This document shows, one piece after another, positions 1 to 64,000 of a DNA stretch of 64,000 nucleotides. This DNA is from a virus (taxonomy: Duplodnaviria > Heunggongvirae > Uroviricota > Caudoviricetes). The DNA lies in the IMG/VR virus record IMGVR_UViG_3300031414_000001, positions 64,001-128,000 of that record; one strand, given 5' to 3'. The position numbers were made by a program, and so were the translations under genes. A model generated the notes under the pieces. That model was not told the origin of the DNA, made no database searches, and saw nothing but the letters and a program-made list of their open reading frames with translations. How positions within the stretch are numbered: position 1 is the first letter of the stretch; the number at the start of each line of letters is the position of its first letter.

Positions 1-658
1 TAATAGCTTCCTTAACGACATTAGTGTATTGAATACCAGAACTAATGATACCAAGTACTTTAGTATCAGTTAAGGTTCTACCAGCGTTTAGAAGATTACG
101 TAATGCTAAAGCTGATTCATACATCATAATATTGTCTAGTACTACTTGATTAGTAGCTAAACATTTTATGCTATATGTTTTAGCATTCTTCATTCCTAGC
201 ACCGATTCTTCAATAATACCCCAATTCATTCCTGGAACGTATGGGCGATTTTGTTGTACTGGTGCAGCAGTTTGAGATTGCTGTTGTTGTGTTTGTGGTT
301 TTACTTGACGCATACGAACAGCGATTGGGTCTTCAATGAAGGTTTCCCCAGCTTGCGGTTCATAATAACCATAAATGCTATCATAATCATTGTCAGAATC
401 TACGTTAACGTATTCTTGACCATAAAATGATTCTTCTTGAATATTACCATATTCTCCGGTCAGTTCTTGTAGACCGTGTAGAAGATTCTTTGTTTCAGCA
501 AGATTAACTTGAGCAAAGTCATTAACAAAAGTACTACCATCTGGTAGTTTCTTAGTTACGGCTTTCCCTTCTTCAATGTCATCGAATGCTGAAAGAATAT
601 CTCCCATTAAATCAACACCATGTTTATAGTGTTCGAAATCTCCGAAATCATCACTCAT
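1..658 (-). CDS. Hypothetical protein, C-terminus beyond window edge (MSDDFGDFEHYKHG...); possible virion/head protein; not in ORF track
   Basis: ATG at 658 overlapping the upstream stop (ATGA), AAGGAG SD; frame read manually stays open to position 1. Confidence 0.8.
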   Translation of the reverse strand, partial: MSDDFGDFEHYKHGVDLMGDILSAFDDIEEGKAVTKKLPDGSTFVNDFAQVNLAETKNLLHGLQELTGEYGNIQEESFYGQEYVNVDSDNDYDSIYGYYEPQAGETFIEDPIAVRMRQVKPQTQQQQSQTAAPVQQNRPYVPGMNWGIIEESVLGMKNAKTYSIKCLATNQVVLDNIMMYESALALRNLLNAGRTLTDTKVLGIISSGIQYTNVVKEAI

Positions 659-873
659 TGCTTACTCCTTTTAATTGATACAAAATATTCAGTTCCATCT
701 TTTTCTACCTTATTTAGAATTCCACGAGAGACAAGTTTATCACCCAACTCTTGATAGTATTCACCAAAGTACTCAACTGGCATCTCAATATTTGCATCAA
801 TCTTCTTAACAAGACGGTATTCTTCATTTGATACAATTATGGTAAACCCTTTATTTGTACCGACCGATCTCAT
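655..873 (-). CDS. Hypothetical protein, 72 aa
   Basis: ORF coupled to both neighbours; no recognisable motif. Confidence 0.75.
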   Translation of the reverse strand: MRSVGTNKGFTIIVSNEEYRLVKKIDANIEMPVEYFGEYYQELGDKLVSRGILNKVEKDGTEYFVSIKRSKQ

Positions 874-1799
874 TATCTTCCTCTCATTCTTGAACAGAAG
901 TCGATGATCTGAGAAAGAATTTCATCAGCATCATGCATACCTTCATTACCTTGTGGTGATTCTTCACCAGTAGTATCCTGTTCACCCTCAATATCACCAA
1001 TTGCTTGTGATAGACGGCCTAGACTTGGATTTTCATGTGTTAGTGGAGAAGATGTTTGTTCAATACTTCTCTTAGGTTCTGGAGCCATTACAGCACCTTC
1101 ACTATTATCCACTTCATCATGTTCATCATCTTCCTGAACAGGTTCAATGTCATCTAAACCAAATACATTTACTTGATTAGCCTTTGATGGATCTTTTGTA
1201 ACTACTAGACTTTTGTCAGGAGTTGGTCCAATATCTACACCAACAACATTAGCTAGTTCAGTACTACCAGCTTGGTTCCCAGGAACAGAAACTTTAAAAT
1301 TCGTGTTCGACGCATTACGTTGTAAATCTGCTTGCTTCATTTTGATAGCAGTTTGTGGATTTACTTGAGATTGTTGCTGAGCAGTGTTTTGTTTATTAAT
1401 CTGCTGAGCGGTCATCTGTGAAGTTATGTCTTCATTTAATTCGTCAAAAACTAATGTTTTAATTTCAGCAAGTGTTAGGTGAGAATTTTCACGCAACGCA
1501 AAAGCACAATTTGCTTTATAGAATTCTTCCAGTTCTGAAACTGTAAGTTTATTCAATGCGTTTACTTCTGCTGATTCATTAATCTTGTTTGAAGCGAAAA
1601 GTTTATAGTTCTCGCTCATTTGTGCTTTATACTTTTGTAGTACTTGCATGATAGCTCTATTATCAGAGTTATCCATTGCTTGGTTAATTTCTACAAAATC
1701 ACCAGCATCCATAGCACTCAGGGCTTGATTTACATCCATCTGTAAACCATTCGCGTCTGCGAACTTTTGAAGCTCTTGTGCGGTTTGTTGTATATCCAT
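873..1799 (-). CDS. Hypothetical late protein, candidate internal head protein
   Basis: GGAGA SD, TAAATA late box at 1839-1844, Q-rich and acidic, several (I/L/V)-x-E sites (INES, LREN, LNED). Confidence 0.7.
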   Translation of the reverse strand: MDIQQTAQELQKFADANGLQMDVNQALSAMDAGDFVEINQAMDNSDNRAIMQVLQKYKAQMSENYKLFASNKINESAEVNALNKLTVSELEEFYKANCAFALRENSHLTLAEIKTLVFDELNEDITSQMTAQQINKQNTAQQQSQVNPQTAIKMKQADLQRNASNTNFKVSVPGNQAGSTELANVVGVDIGPTPDKSLVVTKDPSKANQVNVFGLDDIEPVQEDDEHDEVDNSEGAVMAPEPKRSIEQTSSPLTHENPSLGRLSQAIGDIEGEQDTTGEESPQGNEGMHDADEILSQIIDFCSRMRGR

Positions 1800-1816
1800 A
1801 TTATCTCCAAAAAGAA

Positions 1817-1864
1817 AAACCTTTTCTGTACATGAAGATATTTATCATGTACGGGAAAAGGTTT
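1817..1864 (-). terminator. Long inverted repeat followed by a U-tract, with a late-promoter box in its loop
   Basis: Arms 1817-1835 and 1845-1864; minus-strand TTTTTCTTTTT follows; TAAATA at 1844-1839. Confidence 0.6.
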
Positions 1865-2243
1865 GCTTAGTAATGCTAATATTCCTTTCGGATGTAACAC
1901 TGTTAAATTTTGTTAGACGTGTACCATTAACGTTAGTTGGCAGTACTAGAGGTACACCAGTAACAGATAATTCCACATCCATTGGTAATGCGAATTTGAA
2001 AGTACTCACAACACATTCTCCCCATGCACTAGGGAGATTGTAGAATGATGAATTGTTGTTTTTACTCAAGTCAACTTCAGTTTTAACAACACTCACCATC
2101 ATCGGCCTGTCGAATACCATAACACATTCCAGCAATCTTGACAAATTCATCGCACCAGTAAACTCTCCATTCACAATTGTTGGAGTACTACCATCACCAA
2201 TGTCAATTACAGTGTTGATTGTGTAAAATGTATAAGAAGTCAT
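1845..2243 (-). CDS. Hypothetical protein, possibly structural
   Basis: AAGGA SD, 132 aa beta-rich sequence. Confidence 0.7.
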   Translation of the reverse strand: MTSYTFYTINTVIDIGDGSTPTIVNGEFTGAMNLSRLLECVMVFDRPMMVSVVKTEVDLSKNNNSSFYNLPSAWGECVVSTFKFALPMDVELSVTGVPLVLPTNVNGTRLTKFNSVTSERNISITKQTFSRT

Positions 2244-2244
2244 G

Positions 2245-2400
2245 TTAATCCTTTTTGCCTTTATATTCTTTATATCCGAAGAAATTCGATTTTGGCATTC
2301 TTGTAATTAGAGGATAATTAAGTCCACCGCTTACAGATGCGATTGAACCAGAACTGGTAGCACCGGAAGAAGCATTTTCGTTTACTTTTTTCTTTTTCAT
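2245..2400 (-). CDS. Small protein, 51 aa (MKKKKVNENASSGATSSGSIASVSGGLNYPLITRMPKSNFFGYKEYKGKKD); not in ORF track
   Basis: Fills the gap between flanking genes almost exactly, AAGGTG SD, resembles major capsid N-terminal arm. Confidence 0.75.
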   Translation of the reverse strand: MKKKKVNENASSGATSSGSIASVSGGLNYPLITRMPKSNFFGYKEYKGKKD

Positions 2401-2401
2401 A

Positions 2402-2671
2402 TTATTCACCTTTGTTCTTACGCTTTTCGTCTAAGGTAAGATTCTCTAACCCCTTTTCGAATTTACGATAGTCACGGTTCTTAATACTCAAGAACAAACG
2501 TCTTGTGAGGTCGTTTGCTACTTCTTCGTCAAAATCTTCGTCAATACTATCCAGTAGATTGATTATCGAATTTATTGCATGATCAGCACGATTTCCTAAA
2601 CTTTGAAGTTTTTCTTTGTCCGAAGTATAGTTAACTATACTATCCAGAAGATTGTGCTTTTTACTCGACAT
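2402..2671 (-). CDS. Hypothetical protein, 89 aa
   Basis: Helical ORF directly after the helicase. Confidence 0.7.
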   Translation of the reverse strand: MSSKKHNLLDSIVNYTSDKEKLQSLGNRADHAINSIINLLDSIDEDFDEEVANDLTRRLFLSIKNRDYRKFEKGLENLTLDEKRKNKGE

Positions 2672-2673
2672 AA

Positions 2674-4173
2674 TTACATCCTACCATTCAAAAAGTTTCT
2701 CATACTAGAAACTTTATCCTCAGCCTTTGGTGTATTTATATCTTGTGATTCAGGAGTACTGTGATTTTGTACATCATTTGTACTAGGTTTATGGGTAACT
2801 GTGGTAAGTTTATTCTGTAGAGAACTCATAGCACCGCCAGGAGCTTGTGGAGTACTGAATACATTACTTTTACCAATCATTACCTTCCCACTGTGTTTGA
2901 AACCAGTGTTAATTTCCATTTCCTGAACGGTATTAGGATGATCTAGTACTCGAAGTGAGTCAATATCGTAAGACATGATCAAACGAGAACCTACTGCTGA
3001 ACTATTACGTGTTTTCTGGAAGTCCAGAACCATTTCACCACGATCTTTACGAGCATCAATGTAAATTACGTTATCTGCTGTATAAATCTTGGAAATACCA
3101 CCAGCAATCTGTGCTTGAGACTTAACATCTTCTCCAGCAACACCAGAACGGTTGAACTGACAAGCTGTGAATACAGTTAGATCCATTTTCATAGCTAAAG
3201 CACGTAATTCTTCGGATACGAACTTATCTTTAACGAACGCATTAGACTTATCGTTCGGCCCACAACGATCTGATGTTAACAAATCGAGATAGTCTACACA
3301 AACATAGTCAAGTTTTACGCCAGTTTTGATTTGAAGTTCACGAATGTAACTTTCAATGTCGTTGACAGTACTAACAGATTCAGGTAAACGATGGATACGT
3401 AATTTACCGTTACTGCGTTCCTCAATTTTGACCTTAGCAGCAGTTTCATCAATATCAACTTTGACTTTATTCTGTGCAGTATTAACCATCATACCATAGA
3501 TACGAACAGCAACTAGTTCTGATGCTAGTTCTAGAGTGATGTAAGCACCGTTAAGTCCAGCTTTACTGAAGTTAACTGCTAAGTTTTGGAGGACAACTGA
3601 CTTACCACCACCTGACGCAGCAGCAAAGATTTCTAATTCTTGCTTACCGAAGCCACCAAATAGTTTATAGTCGAAAGTTTCCCAACCAGATTTGAATGTA
3701 CCTTGTTGTTCTGCCAATTTACGAATAACCGCTTCTGGATCTTCATAAATGTCTAGACCAATATCATTCTGTACTGTTACAAGCATGGCTTCACGAATGA
3801 GTTCTTCGATTCCACCATAACGTTTCTGGTTCACCAGTTCCATTCCTTGCTGAATAGCTTGGGCTAGAGCTTTATGACGACAGAATTCACCTACACTATC
3901 CAGTACTGCTTGTTGATTCAAATCTGGAACTACAGTTTCAGAATATGAAAAATCGGCATTGTGTTTAATGTCATTCAGTGTAGGAGTAATGTTGTACTTT
4001 GATGAATAATCATGTACATATTGAATGCTCGCATGATATTCCTTATCGAAATAGTCAGGCTTCAAAACATTCTTACAACGAACATACAAGTCCGGTGTAC
4101 TAAAAATTTGCTGTAGCAAATATAATTGATATTGAATATCGTATTTTCTAACGTCCGTGTTACTTACTGCCAT
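2674..4173 (-). CDS. gp41: Replicative DnaB-like helicase (T4 gp41-like)
   Basis: Walker A ASGGGKS, YITLE, VDYLDL, TACQFNR, KTRN motifs. Confidence 0.95.
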   Translation of the reverse strand: MAVSNTDVRKYDIQYQLYLLQQIFSTPDLYVRCKNVLKPDYFDKEYHASIQYVHDYSSKYNITPTLNDIKHNADFSYSETVVPDLNQQAVLDSVGEFCRHKALAQAIQQGMELVNQKRYGGIEELIREAMLVTVQNDIGLDIYEDPEAVIRKLAEQQGTFKSGWETFDYKLFGGFGKQELEIFAAASGGGKSVVLQNLAVNFSKAGLNGAYITLELASELVAVRIYGMMVNTAQNKVKVDIDETAAKVKIEERSNGKLRIHRLPESVSTVNDIESYIRELQIKTGVKLDYVCVDYLDLLTSDRCGPNDKSNAFVKDKFVSEELRALAMKMDLTVFTACQFNRSGVAGEDVKSQAQIAGGISKIYTADNVIYIDARKDRGEMVLDFQKTRNSSAVGSRLIMSYDIDSLRVLDHPNTVQEMEINTGFKHSGKVMIGKSNVFSTPQAPGGAMSSLQNKLTTVTHKPSTNDVQNHSTPESQDINTPKAEDKVSSMRNFLNGRM

Positions 4174-4180
4174 TTAAACC

Positions 4181-5227
4181 TCAAATCCATTTTTCAGTTT
4201 GTACTCTAATATCGAATCTATCTGTGTATATACTCTTATGAAGAAGTTGTAAACAGAACAACCTTCCATACTTAGCACATGCTTCATCAAAATCCTTAAT
4301 GTGACGGATTCCCTCTCCATCACGAACAGCCCCGAAGTCAGGTAATGCTACACTGAATCCGTGCTCGATAGCTTGTTCAATTGTTACTAGACCATCTTTA
4401 TCACGGTCTGGTACGATAACTATCATTTTACCACGTTCCTGAGCTTTCTTCAACAATTCAATTTGTGAAGTACTAAGGAAGTAGTTATTAGCAGAGATTC
4501 CACCCATTAATGCTGCGTCAATCGGGCCTTCTGCTACCAGGATGGTTTGCATCCTGTCATCATTTAGCAAATCGAAGTTATAAAAAATGCTCGTACTCAC
4601 TTGGTTCCGATAACGATATTCGCTATCTTTGTCAATGTGACGAGCAGTATAACCGATAATTTGTCCATTCATGTAATACGGAATGATGAACCGTTGGAAC
4701 ATGTAAAACTCTTTTGATGGACTCCAGTACAGATCTAAGTCCAACAGATACGGATTACGATCATTGACTGCGTTAACAACTTTCATGAACTCTGGTGGAA
4801 TATTCGGAGAATTCACCCATTCAAGGAAAGGTTTAGCGTCAGGAGGTAAATCACGTTGTACTATTTTCTGGTATAGTTTTGATGCCGCAGTATCTTGTAC
4901 TTCGTAATCGCCACTTTCTACCATTTCTTTTGCGATTAGCTTAATGCTAATCATTTCTTTATCCGACGCACCATATGAACGAAGCAAGGATTCCATATCC
5001 TTGCTTACATATCTTCCTGGTGTCCAGACTGTTTTTAGGTGACAGTTAAAACAATTATACACAACAGAACCATCATTACGGAACATGTGATTTCCACGTC
5101 CTTTCGTATCAGGTCTTGATTGTCCTCTTGTAACACAAGCAGGACAATTGTGTTGATTCCAGCGATCCATCATTGGTGCTGGGTCGTGCATAATTGATGC
5201 CATAATGTCTTGTATCTGATTCATCAT
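4181..5227 (-). CDS. gp61: DNA primase (T4 gp61-like)
   Basis: Zn ribbon CPAC...YNCFNC; TOPRIM motifs AEGPIDA, PDRDKDG, KDFDE; adjacent to helicase. Confidence 0.9.
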   Translation of the reverse strand: MMNQIQDIMASIMHDPAPMMDRWNQHNCPACVTRGQSRPDTKGRGNHMFRNDGSVVYNCFNCHLKTVWTPGRYVSKDMESLLRSYGASDKEMISIKLIAKEMVESGDYEVQDTAASKLYQKIVQRDLPPDAKPFLEWVNSPNIPPEFMKVVNAVNDRNPYLLDLDLYWSPSKEFYMFQRFIIPYYMNGQIIGYTARHIDKDSEYRYRNQVSTSIFYNFDLLNDDRMQTILVAEGPIDAALMGGISANNYFLSTSQIELLKKAQERGKMIVIVPDRDKDGLVTIEQAIEHGFSVALPDFGAVRDGEGIRHIKDFDEACAKYGRLFCLQLLHKSIYTDRFDIRVQTEKWI

Positions 5228-5259
5228 TCAAATCCTATGTCTGTGTCAGTACTTCGATC

Positions 5260-5288
5260 ATTATACCACAATTTTACAAATCATTCCA
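5260..5288 (-). promoter_or_regulatory. Pre-replicative (early/middle) promoter for primase-helicase
   Basis: TGGAA-TG-N13-TGG-TATAAT, one of ten copies with identical spacing. Confidence 0.75.
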
Positions 5289-5289
5289 T

Positions 5290-6261
5290 TTATCTGCGAA
5301 TCAAAATCTTAGGGATAGTGTTCAACGGATTATAATCTTTCTTGATTATATTAGGTGGGTAATTTTTAACAATAGGAGGGATAGCAGCTACTACACGAAC
5401 CCACATAAGTTGTCCGTGGAAGTTAAATGCTCTAATTCCTTCCAATGGAATTGGAATACCGTTTGGATCAAAATCATTCTCAATGTATTCTTTACCATCA
5501 AGTTTAATGATGAACCACTTATAGTCTTCAGCATCCTTTGGAGTTTCATTAGCTAGACAACCTTGTAGTTGAACTCTACCAATGAAATTATTGAAATAAA
5601 ATGCGATAGTACTTAAACCATCTACTAAACCATATTGAGCATCAGCACGAATCGCAGAACTATGCAATACATCGAATTCCCCAATAATACCATTAGAAAT
5701 AGGTTTATTTTCCTTATCTTTAATTGGTAGATATGAAGGATTCTTTTCTGCACTGATTTCTTGACTTGGTGTAAATGTTGGGGCTGCTAGATTACTGATA
5801 GTTAATTCAGCACTAGCTTCAAAGTTTAAACCAGTATACAAGTACTCTGTAGGTTCAATTAGATCTCCATCCATTGTTACCTTAGTAATACTCCAACGGT
5901 ATTTTGAGCCAACACTTAGGTCTTGTATAACTCCAGCAGGAACCATACAACCATAGTAGACTTTAACTTTATTACTAACAGTTGGTCGTGCTTGTCCAGC
6001 TTCAGATACCCATGAAGGTATTTGCTTGTCAAGTACTGTTTCGAAGATTCTAGTATCCGAACGGGCATCAAAGATGCTGAATACTAGATATTGATTATCA
6101 CTAATCAATGTATATTTTCCATCAGCATTATGTATTGTAAAGCTAAGTGGATTGTTTGCACCTCTATAAATGGTTAGTTTCTGTTGAGAGAAAGGCATAT
6201 TGAAATTGCCTAGAGAAACTTCATTGTTATAAGGATACATGTAAACGCCATGATGTGCCAT
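5290..6261 (-). CDS. Hypothetical late (probably virion) protein
   Basis: GAGG SD, TAAATA box at 6299-6304, beta-rich 323 aa. Confidence 0.65.
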   Translation of the reverse strand: MAHHGVYMYPYNNEVSLGNFNMPFSQQKLTIYRGANNPLSFTIHNADGKYTLISDNQYLVFSIFDARSDTRIFETVLDKQIPSWVSEAGQARPTVSNKVKVYYGCMVPAGVIQDLSVGSKYRWSITKVTMDGDLIEPTEYLYTGLNFEASAELTISNLAAPTFTPSQEISAEKNPSYLPIKDKENKPISNGIIGEFDVLHSSAIRADAQYGLVDGLSTIAFYFNNFIGRVQLQGCLANETPKDAEDYKWFIIKLDGKEYIENDFDPNGIPIPLEGIRAFNFHGQLMWVRVVAAIPPIVKNYPPNIIKKDYNPLNTIPKILIRR

Positions 6262-6273
6262 GTTAAACCTCGA

Positions 6274-6304
6274 TAAATATAATATACAATTTATACAATA
6301 TTTA
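6274..6304. promoter_or_regulatory. Face-to-face pair of late promoters
   Basis: TAAATA at 6274-6279 (+) and 6304-6299 (-) between divergent genes. Confidence 0.6.
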
Positions 6305-6314
6305 TGGAAGTCCT

Positions 6315-6668
6315 ATGAATGAATATAAAACTTATCCGTTCGTGACTATTATTGAACACGACGATATAATCTATTATGGGATTATCAAAATCAAAAGTAA
6401 ACAATACATGACATTGTACTGCTTCTCTGAGATGGATGAATCCCTTCAAGAAGAACTGCTATTACTAGCTAATAACTGGTGGTGGCAAAGTAATCGAACC
6501 ATTCCTATTTGCTTATTCATGCAAGAAGAAATGGAAAAATTTGAACCATATACCAAACGATTTAACACTGACCAAGTGAAAGTTCATAGCGGTCCAGTTA
6601 TTTCTTTAAGTGATCTACCTACTAAACGTATTAAACGTCGCAACGTTGCTCTTAAGAAGCGGAAGTGA
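6315..6668 (+). CDS. Hypothetical protein, 117 aa, basic C-terminus
   Basis: Own late box; WWWQSNRTIPI motif; function unknown. Confidence 0.7.
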   Translation: MNEYKTYPFVTIIEHDDIIYYGIIKIKSKQYMTLYCFSEMDESLQEELLLLANNWWWQSNRTIPICLFMQEEMEKFEPYTKRFNTDQVKVHSGPVISLSDLPTKRIKRRNVALKKRK

Positions 6669-7302
6669 TGTATTCAACCAATGCGTTTAACTGAACAACA
6701 ATCATCAAACTATAAGCGTATGCATGAGGCTTTTTGAAGTATCTTAACTTCCGACCTTCAGCATCAAGACCAATACCCTCATAATCCCAAATCACTGCCC
6801 TTACTTCATCCCAACTATTCATACTCTGACATTGACGCTTACCTGGACGAATCATAGCAATAAACATTGCCAATTCATCTATGCTTTTAGGCTTCCAGAT
6901 GTGGAGCAACGTAATGTGCTTCTTAATCTGAGATAGTTCTTCTACGAATTCCGGTACTAATAATAGATCCCAATCAGGCTCTTTGTTCATTAACTCCTTC
7001 AAATGATCCCTATCACGAACATGCTCATAAGCCGATTGAGACAGAATATCAACTTTTTGATATCCTAATCTTTCGGCTTCTTTATATTGTATGCTTGATA
7101 ATCCACTAATTGGATCTACAGGTATATTATCGAAGTGAACACCACTATTGTGTGGGATCAAACCATCTTCTGTAATCTTCTCTACACTTCTAGTACAGGG
7201 AAGTTGCTCTATCACTGACTTTCCATCTTTAAAGTCAATATCAATATCAGTTCGAGCTTTACGGTAATTAATAGTTTGAGAACTCTTGTGATCCGTATCC
7301 AT
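6652..7302 (-). CDS. Miniature DNA polymerase III alpha (DnaE, family C)-like protein
   Basis: DIDIDF, HNSGV, GYQKVDIL, AMIRPG, FKKPHAYAY match DnaE motifs PDIDxDF, HAAGV, GLxKxDxL, ALYRPG, FNKSHxxAY in order. Confidence 0.85.
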   Translation of the reverse strand: MDTDHKSSQTINYRKARTDIDIDFKDGKSVIEQLPCTRSVEKITEDGLIPHNSGVHFDNIPVDPISGLSSIQYKEAERLGYQKVDILSQSAYEHVRDRDHLKELMNKEPDWDLLLVPEFVEELSQIKKHITLLHIWKPKSIDELAMFIAMIRPGKRQCQSMNSWDEVRAVIWDYEGIGLDAEGRKLRYFKKPHAYAYSLMIVVQLNALVEYITSAS

Positions 7303-7627
7303 TCGTTATTTCCTTTAGTCTTTGGACTTCTTGTTTCAACGTAGCAATATCATTAGCCATAATCTTAAGTATGGATGTTTGCTCTTTAATACGCTGACGT
7401 AAAGTGAATAACGCTTCTTCATGCTGTCCAATAAAGGTAATAGCCTGTTCGATACGTTTAGGATCAGTAACCTGAAAAGTTCTGTCTCCCATTGTAATCT
7501 CGGTAACAGTACCTTGACGCAGGATTGAAAGCTGTGAAGCATTTTCTTTTAATTTCTCTTTCTCAAGAGCAATTTCTGTTTTTTCTTCTTCTGTAAGTTC
7601 TGGTTCAGAATAAATTCTTGATTTCAT
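7268..7627 (-). CDS. Hypothetical coiled-coil protein
   Basis: Coupled to neighbours; heptad-like C-terminus. Confidence 0.7.
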   Translation of the reverse strand: MKSRIYSEPELTEEEKTEIALEKEKLKENASQLSILRQGTVTEITMGDRTFQVTDPKRIEQAITFIGQHEEALFTLRQRIKEQTSILKIMANDIATLKQEVQRLKEITNGYGSQEFSNY

Positions 7628-8343
7628 ATACCTGCCTCCGTGAGTAAATTTCGTATATCCATTACTTCATCATTGTACCTGATTTGTAAAATCTTGAAGT
7701 ACGTTGGGTCAATGAATCGAACAAGATACTCTAACTCTGAATCCGAGAAACGGTTCAGTAGTTTATTTCCACTTTCTGGAGAAGCAGCGTAGATAATCCA
7801 CGGTGATAGTTTACCAGTCTCGAACCACAATATAGCACGTTCAGTACTGACATTCTCAAAGAAATCTGTCCATTCATTATCTGTAGCAACTCCCCATTCC
7901 ACAATTGCGTTAATAGAACGCTCGATACCTCGACGTGGATGTTCATTACGAATACAGCTAATTACCCATTCTTCGTATGTCTTTTGGGATTTCCATTCAT
8001 AGACGGTTTTACCACCAGTTAAGACATGCTTGATGAATTGTTCTTTATTTAGAATATCATGAGACAAAATATACTGAGCAAAATCATAGAAGTCATTAAA
8101 GTACCTGGATTTTATGAATTGCATCAATGGTTCTTCATTTTTCTTCATCTGAAATTTGTGTGCTTCCATGAATAACATGTACAGACGATATGCCTCACGC
8201 ATCAATCGGGATTCACGGTCATTATATCGATCACGCTTCACACAATTATGTGTCAGTACTGTATCTTCACGTTTATATTCTTTATCACAAAATCTACATT
8301 TAAAAGTAGGGGCTTTAGCAGCCCCTTTTTTATTTGTTGCCAT
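7624..8343 (-). CDS. Hypothetical protein with N-terminal zinc finger
   Basis: FKCRFCDKEYKREDTVLTHNC (C2HC spacing). Confidence 0.7.
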   Translation of the reverse strand: MATNKKGAAKAPTFKCRFCDKEYKREDTVLTHNCVKRDRYNDRESRLMREAYRLYMLFMEAHKFQMKKNEEPLMQFIKSRYFNDFYDFAQYILSHDILNKEQFIKHVLTGGKTVYEWKSQKTYEEWVISCIRNEHPRRGIERSINAIVEWGVATDNEWTDFFENVSTERAILWFETGKLSPWIIYAASPESGNKLLNRFSDSELEYLVRFIDPTYFKILQIRYNDEVMDIRNLLTEAGI

Positions 8344-9678: not shown

Positions 9679-9687
9679 GTGAATTCC

Positions 9688-10128: not shown

Positions 10129-10161
10129 TTCAAAATATCCTTATTATTTTGTTTCGTCTAT

Positions 10162-25430: not shown

Positions 25431-28400
25431 TTACCAACCGAAGAAACCAGTGTTTAATTCGATTGAACTCTTTTCGTCTATAGCAATATCCATATCCAGA
25501 ATACCGAAGATATTACCCAATTTCTTTGTCAGTACTGCCAATTCCATAGCATCATCATCGAACGGAAGTTCTAGATACCACTCTGGTAAGTAATCTACAC
25601 AGTCAATTGGATAACCAATCTTCTTAATACCTAATGGATTCGGTTTTAGGTCACAAACAATTACTTTAGTACCGTCTGTTGCTTCTGGAACTGATTTATC
25701 ATCGTTCAAATCACGAAGTTTGTTCCATTGAATAGCGGCTAGTACGTGTCCTACCTTACATTTACCTGTATCCTGGTATTCTTTCTCTTTATTGGTATAG
25801 TTTTTCACTGTTTTTGGTGAACCTTTCTCAATACTTGGCTTGTCTTTGAACTCTTTCTTGAACGCACGAACACGTTTACGTAGTTCTTCTTCAGTTTCAC
25901 CCACCAGCAACGCAATTAGCGTTTCTTCTAGGAAGTTCTGGATGTATTTTGGTGTGTCTGAACGTTTAATTTCAAGACCCATAGCTTTGATTTTACCAGG
26001 TTTACCATCCACATCTAAACGGAACCCATCTTCCCAATATTTCAGAATAGCATAACGCTTCTTCTTCAAGAATAAACCACGAGAACCAACCATTTCTAAG
26101 TCAGCACCAACGATTTTACCCTTTTCAATACCAGTATTAAAGGTTTGATCCATAAATTCAGGGAATGATGCACCTACAGTGTCACCAATCATTTGATAAA
26201 GTTCTACAACTTCATCTTTAGACATTTCAAATGGAATGTCATTCTCTTTGTAGTAATGTGCTACGCTGAAATACACGGAATCCGTGTCACCATATACAAC
26301 TACACCACCACTATGATCGTATGTTTCAGTACATACTTCATTAATCTTACTCGCCATGTGCTTAGTCATGCTACGACCAGTTAATGTAACTGATTGTCCT
26401 AGACGTTTGTCGAAGAAACGTGAACCTTTGTTCAACAACGCACCATATAGTGAGTTTAGAAGAATCTTACGAATCTGTTGGTTCTGTTTCCAGAACGCAG
26501 ACTGAGTTTTACAGTACTTTTTATCGGAATCTTGTACGAATACACGACCATTCTCTAAACGCATACCATTATCAGCGATAATCTTAGCAAGTTCAGCATA
26601 ATTCTTGTCAGCAAGAGCTAAACGCATCAGATAAATCGGATCACCTTCGTGCAAGTTCGTTTTATGGATACCAGCACCAAATTGTAGTGATTTTAGTACT
26701 TCTTCAAGTTCTTGTAAAGCTTCTTCTGGCATTTCCCAACCATCTGTTGCCAGGTGTTTGTAGTCAATAACCATTTTCTGTTGTGCTTTACGTTCTGAGT
26801 ACCATACTGTAAGAATTTCTGGAATTACACCGTACTTAGTCTTATCAAATAGAGTACCGTTCGCACTTAGTACGATAGTACTGTCTTCACTAAAGATAAT
26901 ATCATATAATTCCGCACCTGTAGCTTGGAAACTTGTACCATCTTCTAGATCTACAGTAATGATTTCGTCAGATTTCTCACGAACCATTGTAAATTCAACA
27001 CTTGCGAACAAACCGTGCCATGCTTCAGTATATTTCGGCTCAAAACGTCCTTTTCCGCGATAACGCTGACGTTGTTCCTCAATACGTGCTGCTAGATAAG
27101 CTTCAGTATAAGTTTGACGTAGTTGACCAAGGATACATTCAGTACTCATGCCTAAAGCACGTAGAACTGTTGGATATAGTGAGTTAAAGTCCGTACAACC
27201 TAACCAATCAATCAATCCTAGTACTGGATCTTGTACCCAAGCACCAGCAGCCTTAGAACCTTTAGGTTGTTCGTCTTCATCATCTTCATCGTCATCATAA
27301 TCAATTTCGTAGTCCTGATATTCGAAATCAGCTTCATCATCATCAAGTTTACGCTTGTTGAATACTACTTCACCACGTTGGTGAGCCAGATTGATGATTG
27401 CCGTGTCAATTAGTGCTACTGAACCCATTGTAGTACTGATAAGTACACATTCTTTGTGTGCTAGTCGGTTATGTAGGTTGATGAAGTCCATTTTCTCGTC
27501 TATTTTCTTCAACAAGATACTATCTTGCTTAGAATAACGTAAGAATGTCATGTAATCTTCACGATATAACTTATCCAAAGACCCATCATAGGATACTTTG
27601 TTCTCGCCAGTTACTTTTTCAGCAATATAATCTAGTTTATATGACTGTTCTACTTGTCCAGCATGTTTCTTATAAAGAGCTAGATAGTCTAGGTGAACAC
27701 GTCCAACTAAATCAAAGGTTACAATGGTTTTACCAAACATATCTGCTTCACGAGCGTTTGGTTTCTTGTTCCATAAGCACCAACGAGCAAGAGTAGCTTC
27801 ATTAAAGAGCTTTCTTGTACGGTTTACCATGTATGGAATATCAAAGAATTCGCTGTTCCAGCCAGAGAGTACGTCGCCGTCTTCAATTAGCTCGAAGAAC
27901 GTTTCAAACATCTCTGTTTCTTCAGTATAGAGGATGACAATACTATCAGGATTGTCAGTTTCCGCATTGAGGCGGTTAATAATGTCCTGAGCTTCATGGA
28001 TTTCCATACCAGATGGAGCCATTGTAAGAACATAGTCCTTACCTGTCCAGCTTTGGTACAAAGAAATTGCTGTTACTCGGTTGAATGGATCACTCGGCTG
28101 AGCATATCCGAACTTAGGGTGAAAGTCTGTTTCAATATCGAAGAATACGATATTAAGGTCAGGAGAAGACTTACCCATGTAATGTTTCGCAAGGGTTTTA
28201 AATGTCACATTACAATCTGCTTCATAAATCTTAGCAGAAACAGGTAATGATTCCATTTGTTTTTTCATATCTGAATAGCGAGAGAACTCAAACTTCTCGG
28301 CAAAAGTGCCATTGATAGTTTTATGTTCACCACGTGGAGATTCTACATAGTACTCGTATACTGGTTCAATTTCGCGTAGAACACGACGACCATTAATACG

Positions 28401-28460
28401 TTCAGCAACGTGTAGTACTTCTCCAGTACGTTTCCTATCCATATATCCATCTATATACAT
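25431..28460 (-). CDS. gp43: Family B DNA polymerase (T4 gp43-like)
   Basis: Exo FDIET, WNSEFFDIPY; Pol DFNSLYP, KILLNSLYG, YGDTDS, KKRY. Confidence 0.97.
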   Translation of the reverse strand: MYIDGYMDRKRTGEVLHVAERINGRRVLREIEPVYEYYVESPRGEHKTINGTFAEKFEFSRYSDMKKQMESLPVSAKIYEADCNVTFKTLAKHYMGKSSPDLNIVFFDIETDFHPKFGYAQPSDPFNRVTAISLYQSWTGKDYVLTMAPSGMEIHEAQDIINRLNAETDNPDSIVILYTEETEMFETFFELIEDGDVLSGWNSEFFDIPYMVNRTRKLFNEATLARWCLWNKKPNAREADMFGKTIVTFDLVGRVHLDYLALYKKHAGQVEQSYKLDYIAEKVTGENKVSYDGSLDKLYREDYMTFLRYSKQDSILLKKIDEKMDFINLHNRLAHKECVLISTTMGSVALIDTAIINLAHQRGEVVFNKRKLDDDEADFEYQDYEIDYDDDEDDEDEQPKGSKAAGAWVQDPVLGLIDWLGCTDFNSLYPTVLRALGMSTECILGQLRQTYTEAYLAARIEEQRQRYRGKGRFEPKYTEAWHGLFASVEFTMVREKSDEIITVDLEDGTSFQATGAELYDIIFSEDSTIVLSANGTLFDKTKYGVIPEILTVWYSERKAQQKMVIDYKHLATDGWEMPEEALQELEEVLKSLQFGAGIHKTNLHEGDPIYLMRLALADKNYAELAKIIADNGMRLENGRVFVQDSDKKYCKTQSAFWKQNQQIRKILLNSLYGALLNKGSRFFDKRLGQSVTLTGRSMTKHMASKINEVCTETYDHSGGVVVYGDTDSVYFSVAHYYKENDIPFEMSKDEVVELYQMIGDTVGASFPEFMDQTFNTGIEKGKIVGADLEMVGSRGLFLKKKRYAILKYWEDGFRLDVDGKPGKIKAMGLEIKRSDTPKYIQNFLEETLIALLVGETEEELRKRVRAFKKEFKDKPSIEKGSPKTVKNYTNKEKEYQDTGKCKVGHVLAAIQWNKLRDLNDDKSVPEATDGTKVIVCDLKPNPLGIKKIGYPIDCVDYLPEWYLELPFDDDAMELAVLTKKLGNIFGILDMDIAIDEKSSIELNTGFFGW

Positions 28461-57302: not shown

Positions 57303-57305
57303 CAA

Positions 57306-57333
57306 AAAGGGCATCTTCGGATGCCCTTTATAT
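57306..57333 (+). terminator. Terminator with cUUCGg loop
   Basis: AAAGGGCATC-TTCG-GATGCCCTTT; late box follows at 57339-57344. Confidence 0.8.
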
Positions 57334-57381
57334 TGCCATAAATAAAACAAATGAGAAAAAGAATTTTTATTGGAGAATAAA

Positions 57382-60300
57382 ATGGCGAACGAATTTAAAT
57401 TTCAGGCTTCTAAAGTAGCTGAAGCAGTGAATCAAAAATTGTTCATTAAAAGATTGCCAGAATGGATGCAAGGTCTAGAACAAATTCAAATGTTCTGTGA
57501 TGACATTATCCAACAATGGTTTAATCCAGCAGATGAAGAAATCGTAGACGGTTATATCGGTGATCGCGGCTCTCCTGCGGCTTCAGGAAAGATCTTCCTG
57601 AATGAATTAGACCTACAACGTCAAGACTATCAGTTTAGCCCAGCATATGTATCTCGTAATGATGATACCAGTGTTCGTTCTCTCCAATTCTACCCTGATT
57701 TAGTTGGTTATTTGGAGCATTACGGTGCTTTGACTGAGAATCAAGCTCGTCTATTAAGTGGAAAGTACTATTCATGGACTCCACCAATTAACCCAAACAA
57801 ATTACAAAACTTCAGTTCCTATTTGTGGGATACAGAAAACGAATATGGTATTTCTCCAGACTATATCGTAATGGAACGTGGTGCTCTTAATGGTAACACC
57901 TGGTCATTACAGAACTTCTGGTATACCATTGGACAAACTCTACCTGATGGAACTGTTGTAACTGAACAAATGGCACAAGGAAACCGTTTCCGCCGTGCTC
58001 AAGTACCAATTATTGAATTTAATAAGAATATCGAACTAATGAACTACGGTACTCGCTATCGTGGTGATGTTGATTATCTTTCTGACTCAATTAAACCTGA
58101 AGATATTGTACAGAAAAACGTTGGTAACAACGTTCGTGTCGATGGTTATGTTCTACAAGCTGGAGATCGCATCCTATTCACTAGTATTGGCAACGCTGGT
58201 GAGAATAACCGTATCTATAAGGTATACATCAAGCAAATGGCTGATGGAACACGTGTATACGGCCTTGTATTGGACGAAGACGAAGAAACAACCGCTCGCC
58301 CTACTGGTGAACCGCTAACTGGTGACGTTGTTCTGGTGCGTTCTGGTAACGTATATGGCAACACGGCGGTATATTGGAATGGTCGTGAATGGACTGAAGC
58401 ACAAGCTAAAACTGGTGTTAATGAATTTCCATTATTCCAACTATATGATAAAAACGGTATTAAACTAGATAACAGTACTGCTTATCCTAGCAGCACATTT
58501 ACTGGTTCAAATTTGTTCGGTCTAAAAATCAACTACAATTACGGTATGGACAAGATTTATCAAGAACATGTAGAATTAAGTGAATACAACTACTACATTT
58601 TCGAGAACTTCCTACAAACTGTACGTTATACCTATTCTAAAGCTGGTGCTCTAACTGAAATTCCAGGATTATATTTCTATAATGTAATTTCTGAAGATAC
58701 CAATGGTGCTCTAGTACAGAACTTAAACTCTGATTGGGTTCGTAGTCCTGAAGAATCAAAACAAACTGTTCGTCAAGTTCCTGAAGTTACTAAATCTTCT
58801 ATGTATCGTGTGTTCAATACTGTTTCAGAGATGAATTTATTCAAATCTCCAGTAGAAAACATGTATGCTTATGTGATTGAGAATGACAGTACTTACAAGT
58901 ACTATCAACCAAGTAACAGCACATTTATGAAATGGAACATTATTTCTGATGTAGCAATTCAATCAGACTTGTATCAAAGTACTTATGAGCTTGCTCAGAA
59001 GATTGATCCAACAAATACTGATGAAACTCTTGAAGTATTCTTTAATGGTGCTAAAACTTTCGACTACACAACAACTCTAACAGCAGATGGTCTAGTAGAT
59101 AGTATTACTTTTAACAGTACTACCAGTATTGTTGAAGACAGTATCATTGAAATTGTAACCTATAGTCCGACTAAGGTTCCTGATTTGGATTTGGGATCAT
59201 ATCAGATTCCAATTAACTTACAGAATAACCCATACAATGATTTTGTAGACTACATTCATCAAGGTGAATATACTCCGCACTTCTTGGATATTATCGGTAA
59301 GAACATTACAACTGGTTCTGTAAATGATTTAAACAACTATGAACTTCGTTTAGAAGCTGGTCTAGTAGACAACTCTGTTGGTACTAAGATTATTCAGAAC
59401 GAAACATCACTATTACCATTGATGCTTCATAGTGCTAACGAAAACTTAGACTTATTCAGTGCTATTATTTTCACTCAGTACGAATATTTCCGTTTCAAAA
59501 ACAAATTTAACACTCAGATGATGAAGATGTATACTAGTGATCCTGCTTCATTCATGGCTGAGAGTGCGTCTAACATTGTGGATTTGATTTTCTCTGCTAT
59601 TAACGTAGGTAAAGATAATACATTCCCATTCGCTTTAGACAACGTAGGTTCTAATACTACAACTAACAAAACGTTTATTCCACCTACTCCACAATTCTTG
59701 GGTATCCTAAAAGCTTACACTCCAGAAAAAGCTACATACGTTCACGTTGGTAGTTCTATTGGTTGTTATAACATCGACCATATGGGTGTAATCAGTAAGG
59801 CGTACCGTGTAATTAATGGTGTAGACCTAATGGATGATGTTCTTTATGAACTAGAGAATCGTATTTTTAATAGTATTGATAATACCTTTAAGGCAATTGA
59901 TTTCGTTCCTTCAATGGATTCTGATTTCTTGAAACCAACTCCGTACTTTGAAAATACTGCGTATACTTCAGATGAATATAATTCTCTTGAACTACGTGGA
60001 TATGTAAACTTCATCGCTACACAAGGTATTGATAATAGTACTCATAGCTACGATCAATCAAACTGGATGACTTGGAACTACACCGGAACAACTTATGTTG
60101 TTAACGGACAACCAACTGAAATTCCAGCACGTGGTTCATGGAGAGCAATCTATACTGACATGTTCGGTACATATCGCCCAGCAACCCATCCGTGGGAAAT
60201 GTTCGGCTTCTCACAACGTCCAGATTGGTTTAACCAAGAATACGAACCAACTAAAGTTCGTTTAGGAACAGCGACAACTGAATATGTTTATGTATATCCT

Positions 60301-63300
60301 GCTTATGTTACTGATGAAAATGGTGATCTAGTTCCTAGTGGACTATGGGATACTACTTCTGGTCAAGGTGACGCAAGTACTGGTACAATCCTACATGGTA
60401 GTCGTGCTGGTCAATATGATCAATACAAACGTTTTGGTACACAACCATTTGAACTAGTTAGTACTGGTACATTTGCTTCTGATGGTGAAGAAATCTTCGA
60501 ACTAAATCTTATTGCTCCTGAAGTACTAGGTCTAGTTAGTGGTGCTCTATCTCATGTTAGTGAGCCTTGGGCTTACGGTGATATGGGTGAGATGGAATTC
60601 ACTTATATGAATACTGTAATGTACGCATACGATAAGGTTATGGCTCTACTACGTGCTAAACCAGGTCAATTTGCTAACTACTTCTATGATACTAAGGGAA
60701 GTACTATTCAAGAAATTACCAGTGATGGTTATCAATTCTTGTATGGTGAATCCAACAAACGTTTGAATTTCAACAGTACAGCTATTGTTCATGGTGAAAA
60801 TAATCAACGTATTCTTGGATACCAAACATGGGTAAGTGATTACCTAACGTATCAAAATAAAAACATAACTACAAACTATGGTGACATTCTTCGTTCGTCT
60901 TACATTAATGTCGGTCATCGTATTGGTGGATATACTAAACAAGATCAGCTAACATTCAGTTCTGATTCATTTGGTTTAGTGTCTCAAGAAAACCAACACA
61001 TCGGTCTAGTTAAGAGTTCTGCTTTCCGTGATGAAGCACTAAGTGCTGTTAAGATTCAATGGACAGGTTCTGGATTCGCAATTAGTGGATATGACCTTGT
61101 AGGTGCTAAACTAAATTATAAATTACCAAACAAAACTGGTCGTCGTGTATCAGTGACAGTTGGTAAACGTTCTGTTGTTCATTATAACGAGTACCTTGAA
61201 CAGTACGGTTCATATGAATATGGAACACTACTTAAGACTTTCCAAGAAGTTTATACCTTCTTGTGTGGTTACGGTGAATATCTGGAAGATAGAGGCTGGA
61301 TTTTTGAGGATGTTGATACTGATGGTGTTACTCAAGATTGGTCAGTAATTGGTAAAGATTTCATCTCATGGAGTGCAACATCTCCAGCAGTTGGTGAATT
61401 TATTTCCGTTTCTCCAAGTACTAAGAACGCAAAATTCGGTACTGCTTTCGGTTCAGTTCAATCCGTAACACAATTTAATGGTGGAGTATGGTCATTACTT
61501 GATGATACAAACACTGGTATTCGTCCATTTGAAATTGATACATCTCGTATCGGTAACGTATTCAGCGTTCGCGTTGAAGATGATATTGATAAGCGTATGG
61601 CTCTAATTCGCGTTAGCGTTGTTTCATATGAACATGCTGTAATCTTTGATGACAGAACTATCTTCGGAAACGACATTTATCTTCCTAAGTACGGTGTAAT
61701 ACATGAAATGCTTAAAATGTATGGATATGTAACCGGATCATGGAATGGTCGTCTAGAAGCTAAAGGATTCATTATCCTAGAAGCTGGTACAATGCCAGAT
61801 TTCGAAAAACTAGTTGATGACTTCAGAAGTTATTACGATACTGACCATCCAGTAGACAACGTTACTCTACGTAACCTTGCTCGTCATTTGATTGGATTCC
61901 AGACTCGTGATTATATTTCTCAAATGATTACAAGTGATACCTCACAAATTGATTTTTATAAAGGCTTTATCCGTGACAAAGGTACTAACCAAGTGTTTGA
62001 ACGTGTACTTCGTGTATCTAAATCGTACAACACTGATAACTACAAAGCGTTACAGGAATGGGCATTTAAAATTGGTGAATATGGTAATATCTACGGTAAG
62101 AAACACCTACAGTTCCAACTAATCAATAATGAGTTCGCTCAAGAACCTCAAATGTTTACATTTGATTCTCTAGCAACTTCTGATAGTACTGAGAACAATA
62201 TTGTGTACTACGGTACTCAAGGTGAAGATTCTCGCTGGATTACTCGTCCTAATGGTACATTTGCGTTCCCTACCCGTACAGGTAAGAGTGAGCGTATCCA
62301 TCTACCAGATATTGGACCAGTAACACTAGACGAAGTATCTTACAGTACTCGTGATTTTACTACAGCTTATGCTGACCGTCTATCCTTTATCACTAATACG
62401 GATACAACACCTACTTCGGTATGGGTATTCCGTGATATGGATAACAACTGGAACATTTATGAACTAGAAAATACTGGAATCACTCTTTCTTCTATTACAC
62501 CAATTGGTGAAGATAGTTATACCGGAAACCACTGTACTTTACAACTAAGTGCGGCACACGGTATGGAAGATGGCGATTACTTCTTCTTCGTTGACGAATC
62601 TGAATATATGCCAGATTTGCTAAAAGCGGAAACTCAGTACTTTACAACTGGATCTGATCCAACTAGCTTCGTAATTCCATTGAACGTAACTAATACTATC
62701 AGTTTCGCAGACAATAATCCAGTACTATATCGTTATGTCAATCGTTTCAGCACTGCTGCCGAGAAGACTGCGTATACTACTCAGAAATATTCCTACGAAG
62801 CACCGGAAAGTACTTTGTTCGTTCGCCCAACTACGTACAATAATGAAACTAACGTGACTGAATTGTACATGAACGTCTATGACCCAATCAACGGAGTTAT
62901 CCCTGGTAGCATCATGGCTGACGTAACTTACGTAAGTCCAGTTGACCCTGCTAAGTATAACAGTGAAGATGAAACGGTACAAGCATGGGGTTCAGAAAAA
63001 GTTGGTTTAGTATGGTGGAATACAACTAATGCGTTCTTTATGGACTATACCCGTCCAATTTATGCTGCTGATGGTACAGTGGATGAAGAAGCAACCAATA
63101 GCTATAAACGCTATAATTGGGGTAAACTACTACCAAATTCTGAAATTAACGTTCTAGAATGGGTAGCATCTCCATATCCTCCATATGAATGGGATAAGTA
63201 CTGTGAACGTCAGGCTAAGTTAAACAAGGATAATACAGCTTGGGTTCCAAGTGGTGAAGCAATTGAAGACTTCTTCTCCGTATTCCAAGAATACGATGAA

Positions 63301-64000
63301 AGTACTAATGCTTATAAGACAGTTTACTATTTTTGGGTTAAAAACGCAATCTACGTTCCAAAAGTTAAGAACCGTAATAAACCATGTAATGAATTGGCAC
63401 GTACAATTCAAGATCCATCGCTACTAAATGCTCCTTGGTTCGCACCAATTAGTACTAATTCATTCATCATCAGTGGACTTCAACAAGAAATCACCGATGA
63501 TAAGAGCATTCTAAGTATTACATATCAAAATGATGCTACTGAAGTTGTGAAACATGAACAGTATCAACTATGTAAAGAAGGAATGGATTATAATTTCAAC
63601 CCTGTTATTTGGAATTCAATGTGGAATTCTCTACTATCTCAAGAAACTCTACCTAATGGTACAGTACTTGAATTGAATTATCCAACTAACGATAACGGTA
63701 TTTTGCCTGGAGAAACTTGGTTCCAAGATGTGATTGAAGCACGTAGAACCTTCGTAGATTCAGCTAACGCAATTTACAAAACAACTAACGTAACAACTGA
63801 CGCAGTAACAATGGCTGAAGTGTTTAACGTGAAAACTGTAGAAGAAAACCCAAATCTTATCAGTTTTAAAGTACTAAACTATAATAACGAACTTGTAATT
63901 AATCCATCAACTGATGCTTTCGTTGAAAATGACGCAGTATTAGTGAGTTCAAATGGTACTCTACCATCGCCGTTGGATTCATCAACTGTGTACTTCGTAC
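57382..64000 (+). CDS. Very large virion/baseplate protein (gp7-like position), more than 2200 aa, runs off window; not in ORF track
   Basis: GGAGA SD, ATG 57382 (MANEFKFQASK...), late box; frame spot-checked open to the end; YKGFIRDKGT and QEWAFKIGEYG motifs; follows gp6. Confidence 0.85.
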   Translation, partial: MANEFKFQASKVAEAVNQKLFIKRLPEWMQGLEQIQMFCDDIIQQWFNPADEEIVDGYIGDRGSPAASGKIFLNELDLQRQDYQFSPAYVSRNDDTSVRSLQFYPDLVGYLEHYGALTENQARLLSGKYYSWTPPINPNKLQNFSSYLWDTENEYGISPDYIVMERGALNGNTWSLQNFWYTIGQTLPDGTVVTEQMAQGNRFRRAQVPIIEFNKNIELMNYGTRYRGDVDYLSDSIKPEDIVQKNVGNNVRVDGYVLQAGDRILFTSIGNAGENNRIYKVYIKQMADGTRVYGLVLDEDEETTARPTGEPLTGDVVLVRSGNVYGNTAVYWNGREWTEAQAKTGVNEFPLFQLYDKNGIKLDNSTAYPSSTFTGSNLFGLKINYNYGMDKIYQEHVELSEYNYYIFENFLQTVRYTYSKAGALTEIPGLYFYNVISEDTNGALVQNLNSDWVRSPEESKQTVRQVPEVTKSSMYRVFNTVSEMNLFKSPVENMYAYVIENDSTYKYYQPSNSTFMKWNIISDVAIQSDLYQSTYELAQKIDPTNTDETLEVFFNGAKTFDYTTTLTADGLVDSITFNSTTSIVEDSIIEIVTYSPTKVPDLDLGSYQIPINLQNNPYNDFVDYIHQGEYTPHFLDIIGKNITTGSVNDLNNYELRLEAGLVDNSVGTKIIQNETSLLPLMLHSANENLDLFSAIIFTQYEYFRFKNKFNTQMMKMYTSDPASFMAESASNIVDLIFSAINVGKDNTFPFALDNVGSNTTTNKTFIPPTPQFLGILKAYTPEKATYVHVGSSIGCYNIDHMGVISKAYRVINGVDLMDDVLYELENRIFNSIDNTFKAIDFVPSMDSDFLKPTPYFENTAYTSDEYNSLELRGYVNFIATQGIDNSTHSYDQSNWMTWNYTGTTYVVNGQPTEIPARGSWRAIYTDMFGTYRPATHPWEMFGFSQRPDWFNQEYEPTKVRLGTATTEYVYVYPAYVTDENGDLVPSGLWDTTSGQGDASTGTILHGSRAGQYDQYKRFGTQPFELVSTGTFASDGEEIFELNLIAPEVLGLVSGALSHVSEPWAYGDMGEMEFTYMNTVMYAYDKVMALLRAKPGQFANYFYDTKGSTIQEITSDGYQFLYGESNKRLNFNSTAIVHGENNQRILGYQTWVSDYLTYQNKNITTNYGDILRSSYINVGHRIGGYTKQDQLTFSSDSFGLVSQENQHIGLVKSSAFRDEALSAVKIQWTGSGFAISGYDLVGAKLNYKLPNKTGRRVSVTVGKRSVVHYNEYLEQYGSYEYGTLLKTFQEVYTFLCGYGEYLEDRGWIFEDVDTDGVTQDWSVIGKDFISWSATSPAVGEFISVSPSTKNAKFGTAFGSVQSVTQFNGGVWSLLDDTNTGIRPFEIDTSRIGNVFSVRVEDDIDKRMALIRVSVVSYEHAVIFDDRTIFGNDIYLPKYGVIHEMLKMYGYVTGSWNGRLEAKGFIILEAGTMPDFEKLVDDFRSYYDTDHPVDNVTLRNLARHLIGFQTRDYISQMITSDTSQIDFYKGFIRDKGTNQVFERVLRVSKSYNTDNYKALQEWAFKIGEYGNIYGKKHLQFQLINNEFAQEPQMFTFDSLATSDSTENNIVYYGTQGEDSRWITRPNGTFAFPTRTGKSERIHLPDIGPVTLDEVSYSTRDFTTAYADRLSFITNTDTTPTSVWVFRDMDNNWNIYELENTGITLSSITPIGEDSYTGNHCTLQLSAAHGMEDGDYFFFVDESEYMPDLLKAETQYFTTGSDPTSFVIPLNVTNTISFADNNPVLYRYVNRFSTAAEKTAYTTQKYSYEAPESTLFVRPTTYNNETNVTELYMNVYDPINGVIPGSIMADVTYVSPVDPAKYNSEDETVQAWGSEKVGLVWWNTTNAFFMDYTRPIYAADGTVDEEATNSYKRYNWGKLLPNSEINVLEWVASPYPPYEWDKYCERQAKLNKDNTAWVPSGEAIEDFFSVFQEYDESTNAYKTVYYFWVKNAIYVPKVKNRNKPCNELARTIQDPSLLNAPWFAPISTNSFIISGLQQEITDDKSILSITYQNDATEVVKHEQYQLCKEGMDYNFNPVIWNSMWNSLLSQETLPNGTVLELNYPTNDNGILPGETWFQDVIEARRTFVDSANAIYKTTNVTTDAVTMAEVFNVKTVEENPNLISFKVLNYNNELVINPSTDAFVENDAVLVSSNGTLPSPLDSSTVYFV

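Follow-up and report, generated by a model that had tools for sequence, protein, structure and literature searches.

A dispersed AGTACT palindrome in Rak2-like jumbo phages appears to be held by selection and occupies fixed positions in terminal-repeat promoters

Introduction

Phages normally purge 6-bp palindromes from their genomes. Here we analyze AGTACT (the ScaI site), a palindrome that goes the opposite way in a 64,000-nucleotide stretch of jumbo phage DNA (bases 64,001–128,000 of the 370,971-bp genome in IMG/VR record IMGVR_UViG_3300031414_000001; hereafter the window), even though this genome resembles other cases of restriction-site avoidance in being purged of GCGC and of most C/G-flanked 6-bp palindromes. 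Chi and uptake sequences, like AGTACT, are short words that are enriched in all frames and can shift protein composition, but they are non-palindromic or oriented and are enriched in the host chromosome, whereas AGTACT reads the same on both strands and is seldom met in the short host stretches sampled. HIP1 (GCGATCGC), a word of cyanobacteria, is selected independently of codons and amino acids, has no promoter association and shows an 18–94 kb periodicity (PMC5861425). Like HIP1, AGTACT is a short palindrome that is more frequent across the genome than codon and amino-acid usage would give, with sites conserved between relatives; it differs in being a 6-mer of an enterobacterial phage rather than GCGATCGC in cyanobacterial chromosomes, and in being tied to set positions within a single class of promoter. 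In some species, HIP1 cores carry methylation, according to one study (PMC6604393). AGTACT apparently does not.

A second set of precedents concerns what such a site might do. The proteins phi29 p6, SPO1 TF1 and T5 A2/D5 bind phage DNA in abundance and switch early promoters to silence. The action proposed below for AGTACT would resemble theirs in binding along phage DNA, favoring the ends or terminal repeat and switching off the earliest promoters; they differ in reading DNA shape or modified bases and no selected hexamer. By these analogies, the AGTACT system would be HIP1-like in its statistics and p6- or TF1-like in its proposed action, and a member of neither group. Here a single 6-bp palindrome looks to be selected at roughly 1,000 positions and alters proteins, and an unrelated phage family carries it in the same flanking context. 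Such a word is of interest for two problems faced by jumbo phages that have neither a nucleus nor modified bases: turning off the genes expressed first, and distinguishing phage DNA from host DNA. It would also be a tractable counterpart of HIP1, as promoter placement can be assayed and both E. coli and Klebsiella serve as hosts for these phages. A published description of AGTACT in Rak2-like phages was not found in the literature searched, which did not cover subscription papers.

AGTACT is in excess throughout the window and the genome

The window contains 167 AGTACT sites, 156 of them in genes and 11 outside genes as called by our own simple caller, against 21.5 expected from base composition (7.8-fold); relative to an order-2 Markov model, the excess is 4.5-fold. 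An initial annotation of this DNA had tallied about 160 sites by eye, with about 20 expected and a 7–8-fold enrichment, and the computed values bear this out. Its listed positions (54, 138, 530, 768, 1260, 1639, 1942, 2001 and 2184) are exact, and its tallies for five successive 10-kb blocks and the last 14 kb (25, 29, 25, 17, 25 and about 42) compare with counts of 26, 29, 25, 19, 25 and 43. It had also placed the sites in all three codon phases, on both strands and in intergenic DNA; we find 86 Ser-Thr, 49 x-Val-Leu and 21 x-Tyr instances, in genes of both strands, in addition to the sites outside called genes.

The annotation had cautioned that codon preference accounts for part of the excess. 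GTA, ACT and AGT are indeed frequent codons, and they lift the window expectation from about 22 to about 30 only: in 1000 shuffles that keep protein sequence and codon usage, the window's genes carried 30.5±5.0 AGTACT and never more than 46, compared with the 156 observed. Control palindromes are not equally enriched in the window (ACTAGT 17, TGTACA 23, GGTACC 0), from which GCGC is missing entirely.

Genome-wide, AGTACT is the most frequent hexamer, with 1166 sites (9.5-fold) against 228 for the runner-up 6-bp palindrome. Coding DNA holds 965 of these sites, although their density in non-coding DNA exceeds that in coding DNA. Codon-preserving shuffles of the genome gave 179±11 AGTACT, and shuffles within each gene 209±13, against 879 observed. 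The AGT-ACT spelling is used for 464 of the 675 Ser-Thr pairs, and the Ser-Thr dipeptide itself occurs at 1.5–1.8 times expectation, compared with about 1.0 for Thr-Ser and 1.0–1.1 in T4 and PA5oct. The excess thus alters protein sequence, through over-use of Ser-Thr. The preference extends beyond the palindrome to TTnC-AGTACT-GnAA, with flanks that are roughly strand-symmetric and G as the rarest flank. Most C/G-flanked 6-bp palindromes, CGATCG among them, count zero in the genome, and GCGC is the only 4-mer missing from it.

The window encodes a family B DNA polymerase with 97% identity to its counterparts in Erwinia phage Kaldavass and XbC2, and with 90% identity to those in GAP32 and CBB; by sequence, the source is a jumbo phage of the Rak2-like, Mimasvirus type. 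Each of the 15 Rak2-like genomes tested, drawn from Mimasvirus, Eneladusvirus, Asteriusvirus, Alcyoneusvirus, the Munch group and XaC1, carries 850–1356 AGTACT sites, compared with 0–62 in seven outgroups (PA5oct, MIJ3, Atu_ph07, XacN1, Phosso, RsoM2USA and T4). XaC1 combines the highest count with the weakest preference for flanking C. GCGC is missing from every Rak2-like genome or large segment examined.

Silent changes that destroy AGTACT are suppressed

Three genomes at 88% identity were aligned by codon, and each substitution rate was taken relative to the same codon change elsewhere. Silent changes that destroy AGTACT occurred at 0.20x background and changes that create it at 2.08x, with all six positions of the word protected. 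The independent GAP32/CBB pair gave 0.24x for loss and 1.79x for gain, and control palindromes were lost at 0.95–1.7x. A model with odds ratios of about 10 and a per-site scaled selection coefficient of about 2.3 predicts a loss of 0.25x and a gain of 2.5x; a pure gain hotspot predicts unreduced loss. Because loss is reduced fivefold, a gain hotspot cannot account for the sites, and AGTACT looks to be held by selection rather than generated by a mutational hotspot. The claim of the initial annotation, that the site is under selection or produced by a site-specific process, therefore stands in the form of selection or an equivalent bias, and not as a codon artifact. A mutation hotspot, or a preference for certain codons or dipeptides, is hardly credible as the source of the pattern: shuffling leaves a 4–5-fold excess for all the contribution of GTA, ACT and AGT, and both the higher non-coding density and the suppressed loss go against it.

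Two repair-based candidates were also rejected. Divergence at four-fold sites is flat (0.24–0.26) at all distances from AGTACT; repair is therefore not being steered to the neighborhood of the word, and a MutH/GATC-type repair signal is not supported. A Vsr-like single-mismatch repair was rejected because all substitution types are protected, with no one mismatch type dominating.

AGTACT occupies fixed positions in terminal-repeat promoters

The terminal repeat of CBB spans positions 1–22,456 (PMC5259590). In the corresponding repeat of about 22 kb, AGTACT density rises two- to threefold, mainly in non-coding DNA, where seven genomes show 9–12 sites/kb in the repeats and mostly 1.4–5.6/kb elsewhere. 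In fENko-Kae01, whose repeat end was defined by PhageTerm, density steps from 6.2 to 2.5/kb at that boundary. The repeat consists of small genes, presumably the first to be expressed, which have sigma70-like promoters of their own. By strict criteria, 163 of 244 promoters in the repeat carry AGTACT compared with 25 of 269 others, counts that are not independent, and whose P values are inflated, since the genomes share ancestry and some of the terminal-repeat promoters are duplicates of one another.

Within these promoters, AGTACT adjoins the -35 box, precedes or overlaps the -10 box or lies near +1, often as a pair 20–21 bp apart. Its offsets are fixed, at -5 from the -35 box (96 cases) and at -7/-8, -2, +3 and +9 from the -10 box. 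At the -35 edge, the ratio of AGTACT to AGT[CGT]CT is 87:2 in repeat promoters and 8:15 (mostly AGTCCT) in other sigma70 promoters, against a genome-wide ratio of AGTACT to AGTCCT of 29:1; the word is thus avoided at the -35 edge of non-repeat promoters. It is likewise depleted in the footprints of late (0.97/kb) and middle (0.6/kb) promoters relative to about 3/kb overall. A palindrome that overlaps the -35, -10 or +1 of one promoter class is what an operator would show; the 965 coding sites are not, since operators are rare outside the promoters they regulate. Several positions, all within the polymerase footprint, would be easier to reconcile with a protein that occludes the promoter than with an activator or a sigma factor.

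Because of this placement, which lies outside the window, a site for a DNA-binding protein fits best. We consider it probable, though well short of certain, that AGTACT is recognized by a predicted DNA-binding protein, symmetric and sequence-specific, which blocks the promoters of the terminal repeat and tags the DNA of the phage, a reading that includes the case of a host-encoded reader; a phage-encoded reader seems somewhat the likelier. Such a reader would act on intracellular phage DNA, and when bound to AGTACT within the RNA polymerase footprint it would block initiation, giving the phage a means of turning off the small genes of the terminal repeat as the protein builds up. Through the roughly 1,000 weakly selected sites elsewhere, this protein could also coat or tag the DNA of the phage, in which AGTACT is some tens of times more frequent than in the short host stretches sampled.

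Several observations, besides the non-independence of the promoter counts, weigh against this explanation. GAAGAA, a frequent non-palindrome, also shows lowered loss (0.39x), and biased gene conversion gives the same substitution rates as selection. AGTACT sites are conserved in related phages, as the initial annotation had proposed to check, but their spacing is near-random, with no 10.5-bp phasing at spacings below 600 bp apart from the 20–21 bp promoter pair. The annotation had also listed a DNA-binding protein among its options, and here placement and searches part ways: no HU, HTH_3, AbrB or RHH_1 match exceeded the cut-off among the phage proteins (homologues of p6 and A2/D5 were not searched for), and no DNA-binding reader appeared among the Pfam matches listed for 82 clade-restricted core proteins.

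Molecular drive without benefit, of the kind proposed for HIP1 and uptake sequences, would have heteroduplexes formed during co-infection repaired toward the AGTACT strand. It is equivalent to selection in substitution rates, agrees with the near-random spacing and would find its material in the recombination-like conflicting topologies of the three close genomes, but it leaves unexplained the 21 AGTACT/kb in repeat promoter footprints, the fixed offsets and the depletion in other promoters, and no one mismatch type dominates. We regard it as rather unlikely.

Two further features were seen near these promoters. A second class of terminal-repeat promoters has its -35 box within a GGGG...CCCC inverted repeat that resembles an overlapping terminator, and a 2-kb gene just beyond the inferred repeat end (genome 281,908–283,938, + strand) carries 14 AGTACT, about twice the coding average. 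A family search with a core gene of the terminal repeat (genome 266,956–267,534) gave nothing informative.

Methylases do not account well for the word

The initial annotation had raised a phage methyltransferase self-mark, which the evidence does not favor. The genome encodes three methylases (Table 1). The N4/N6 methylase (SPPY, M.PvuII-like) occurs in 5 of 14 jumbo records and was rejected as the cause, being absent from RaK2, PBECO4, Munch, fENko, Hallingskeid, EJP2, A4 and XaC1; Cellulophaga phage phi18:3 encodes a 53% homologue and has no AGTACT excess. The C5 methylase, found in 9 of 15, was rejected as patchy among AGTACT-rich genomes.

This leaves the possibility that PF05869 Dam, with changed specificity, marks AGTACT, the mark protecting DNA or switching promoters. 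Methylase sites often take the form of a sharp 6-bp palindrome, and PF05869 Dam is present in all 15 AGTACT-rich jumbo genomes and none of seven outgroups, but about 80 other genes are equally clade-restricted core genes, and it was not found in the AGTACT-rich small prophages described below. Its nearest characterized relative, matched by position and description, is the Dam of the lactococcal 936-phage packaging module (49% identity), which methylates GATC (PMC4190342). The Kaldavass Dam is 100% identical to the one encoded here, and the nanopore methylomes of Kaldavass and Hallingskeid, whose sensitivity is not given in the available text of that study, list GATC, CCWGG and TGCAT only, with no AGTACT (PMC11780129). 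A single-sequence fold of the protein was uninformative (predicted local distance difference test score, pLDDT, 47). Methylation of AGTACT is unlikely, and we give the methylase explanation as a whole a low probability. Rak2-like phages also appear to lack hypermodified bases.

TGCA is about fivefold depleted in this genome, Kaldavass and XbC2 only (364–396 sites, compared with 1520–2155 in GAP32, CBB, RaK2 and XaC1). The available text of the nanopore study reports a TGCAT modification in Kaldavass without an explanation for it (PMC11780129).

A restriction-enzyme-like core protein is a candidate for the GCGC ban

A 243-amino-acid (243-aa) protein is present in all Rak2-like genomes and restricted to the clade. 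Its language-model neighbors are restriction-enzyme-like, which we take as a lead only, and its invariant residues (E29, D49, S60-V-K62 and E89) form a D...SxK/E catalytic-like pattern. The top VIA-align matches to its predicted structure (pLDDT 91.5) are restriction endonucleases (best Z 8.0, root-mean-square deviation 4.6, 170 aligned), and Foldseek with the same model returned nothing at E≤0.001. Structural neighbors include HinP1I, MspI and HhaI, which cut GC-only 4-bp sites, and 3ndh, which we take to be ThaI. The fold neighbors and the catalytic-like pattern would liken the protein to type II restriction endonucleases; it differs in lacking sequence similarity to them, and methylases of the matching C5 and N4 types are not universal among these phages.

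From the predicted restriction-enzyme-like fold together with the absence of GCGC, alone among 4-mers, we read the protein as a candidate GCGC-cutting host-DNA nuclease, to which we give somewhat less than an even chance; the fold Z is middling, and the fold does not fix the target. If the protein cuts GCGC in host DNA, GCGC would be a negative word beside the positive word AGTACT. For the GCGC ban, the protein offers one candidate that is open to experiment.

The same protein could instead nick or bind AGTACT, giving programmed nicks or starts of recombination or replication. Its universal, clade-restricted distribution and predicted fold would allow this, but the GC-only 4-bp cutters among its top neighbors and the missing GCGC suit a host-DNA cutter better, and the protein was not found in AGTACT-rich prophages. 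In its available text, the nanopore study saw nicks in another phage and reported none for Kaldavass or Hallingskeid (PMC11780129). We think it improbable that this protein is the AGTACT reader, and the nicking explanation is similarly improbable.

Unrelated prophages carry the same word

Prophages of 30–35 kb from Leclercia, Lelliottia and Enterobacter (IMG/VR) show AGTACT at 11–16x, almost no GCGC and the same purge of palindromes, a combination seen neither in the host DNA that flanks them nor in a distant sister prophage from E. coli. Their AGTACT flank matrix correlates with that of Rak2-like phages (r 0.78–0.84; control words gave -0.05 to 0.55), and conservation of the sites is high (0.72 vs 0.26–0.61). 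The proteins common to prophages and jumbo phages are a lysozyme and a patchy CBB/GAP32 protein only; hidden Markov model comparison of prophage families with Rak2-like proteins found no common core protein beyond lysozyme, although a very small or diverged one could escape. The prophage lysozyme shares 40–45% identity with the lysozyme and the baseplate lysozyme domain of Rak2-like phages, which suggests that genes have been exchanged or that hosts are shared.

Either a host protein reads AGTACT, or the prophages mimic the code of the jumbo phage. A reader private to the phage would not explain the signal in unrelated prophages except by mimicry, a further difficulty for a phage-encoded DNA-binding protein. 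The host-encoded case supposes a protein conserved in Enterobacteriaceae, on whose site two unrelated phage groups converged. The shared word, flanks, near-absence of GCGC, palindrome purge and site conservation, with so few proteins in common, are what it would give. Mimicry by co-resident prophages would yield the same pattern, and the host DNA sampled, in short stretches, is nearly free of AGTACT (1 in 18 kb of E. coli, about 0–1 in prophage flanks). T4 is depleted of the word, as is the distant sister prophage, from E. coli PSS-15, which shows the opposite signature (no AGTACT in 22 kb, GTAC at 0.15x expected). A search turned up no host protein with an AGTACT consensus. We hold the host reader to be possible but unlikely. 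SlmA was rejected as the reader: it prefers G flanks, the flanks here are wrong for it, and the full SlmA site is absent.

The GCGC ban in the prophages would fit mimicry if the 243-aa protein cuts GCGC, and a common host restriction pressure would give the same ban. A two-word code of self and host would combine these elements: a restriction-like nuclease would destroy GCGC-bearing host DNA, a phage protein on the roughly 1,000 AGTACT sites would tag and organize phage DNA and silence the repeat promoters, and unrelated prophages would have copied both words to survive or exploit jumbo infection. We consider this composite doubtful.

XbC2 and XaC1 are labeled as Xanthomonas phages, yet XbC2 genes are 88% identical to those of Erwinia phage Kaldavass. 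Their host label bears on the host-reader hypothesis.

Other features of the genome

Coordinates of the features discussed are collected in Table 1. The DNA polymerase gene serves to place the phage.

Table 1. Positions of the AGTACT sites and of the genes and regions discussed in the text.
Feature	Location	Strand	Remarks
Dispersed AGTACT palindromes	window 1..64000	.	167 copies, one per ~380 bp
Family B DNA polymerase	window 25431..28460	-	places the phage; 9 AGTACT sites; not part of the signal machinery
N4/N6 methylase	genome 192,256-193,149	-	outside window
243-aa core protein, restriction-enzyme-like	genome 245,500-246,231	-	outside window
PF05869 Dam	genome 249,707-250,252	-	outside window
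Terminal-repeat promoter region	genome ~259,500-281,700	–	by homology to CBB repeat; outside window
C5 methylase	genome 367,175-368,035	-	outside window

The core genes also include a homologue of IF-3 (e.g., genome 49,355–49,861), and clade-restricted core proteins matched the TelA, ClpS, KTSC, PTH2 and poly(A)/CCA polymerase families.

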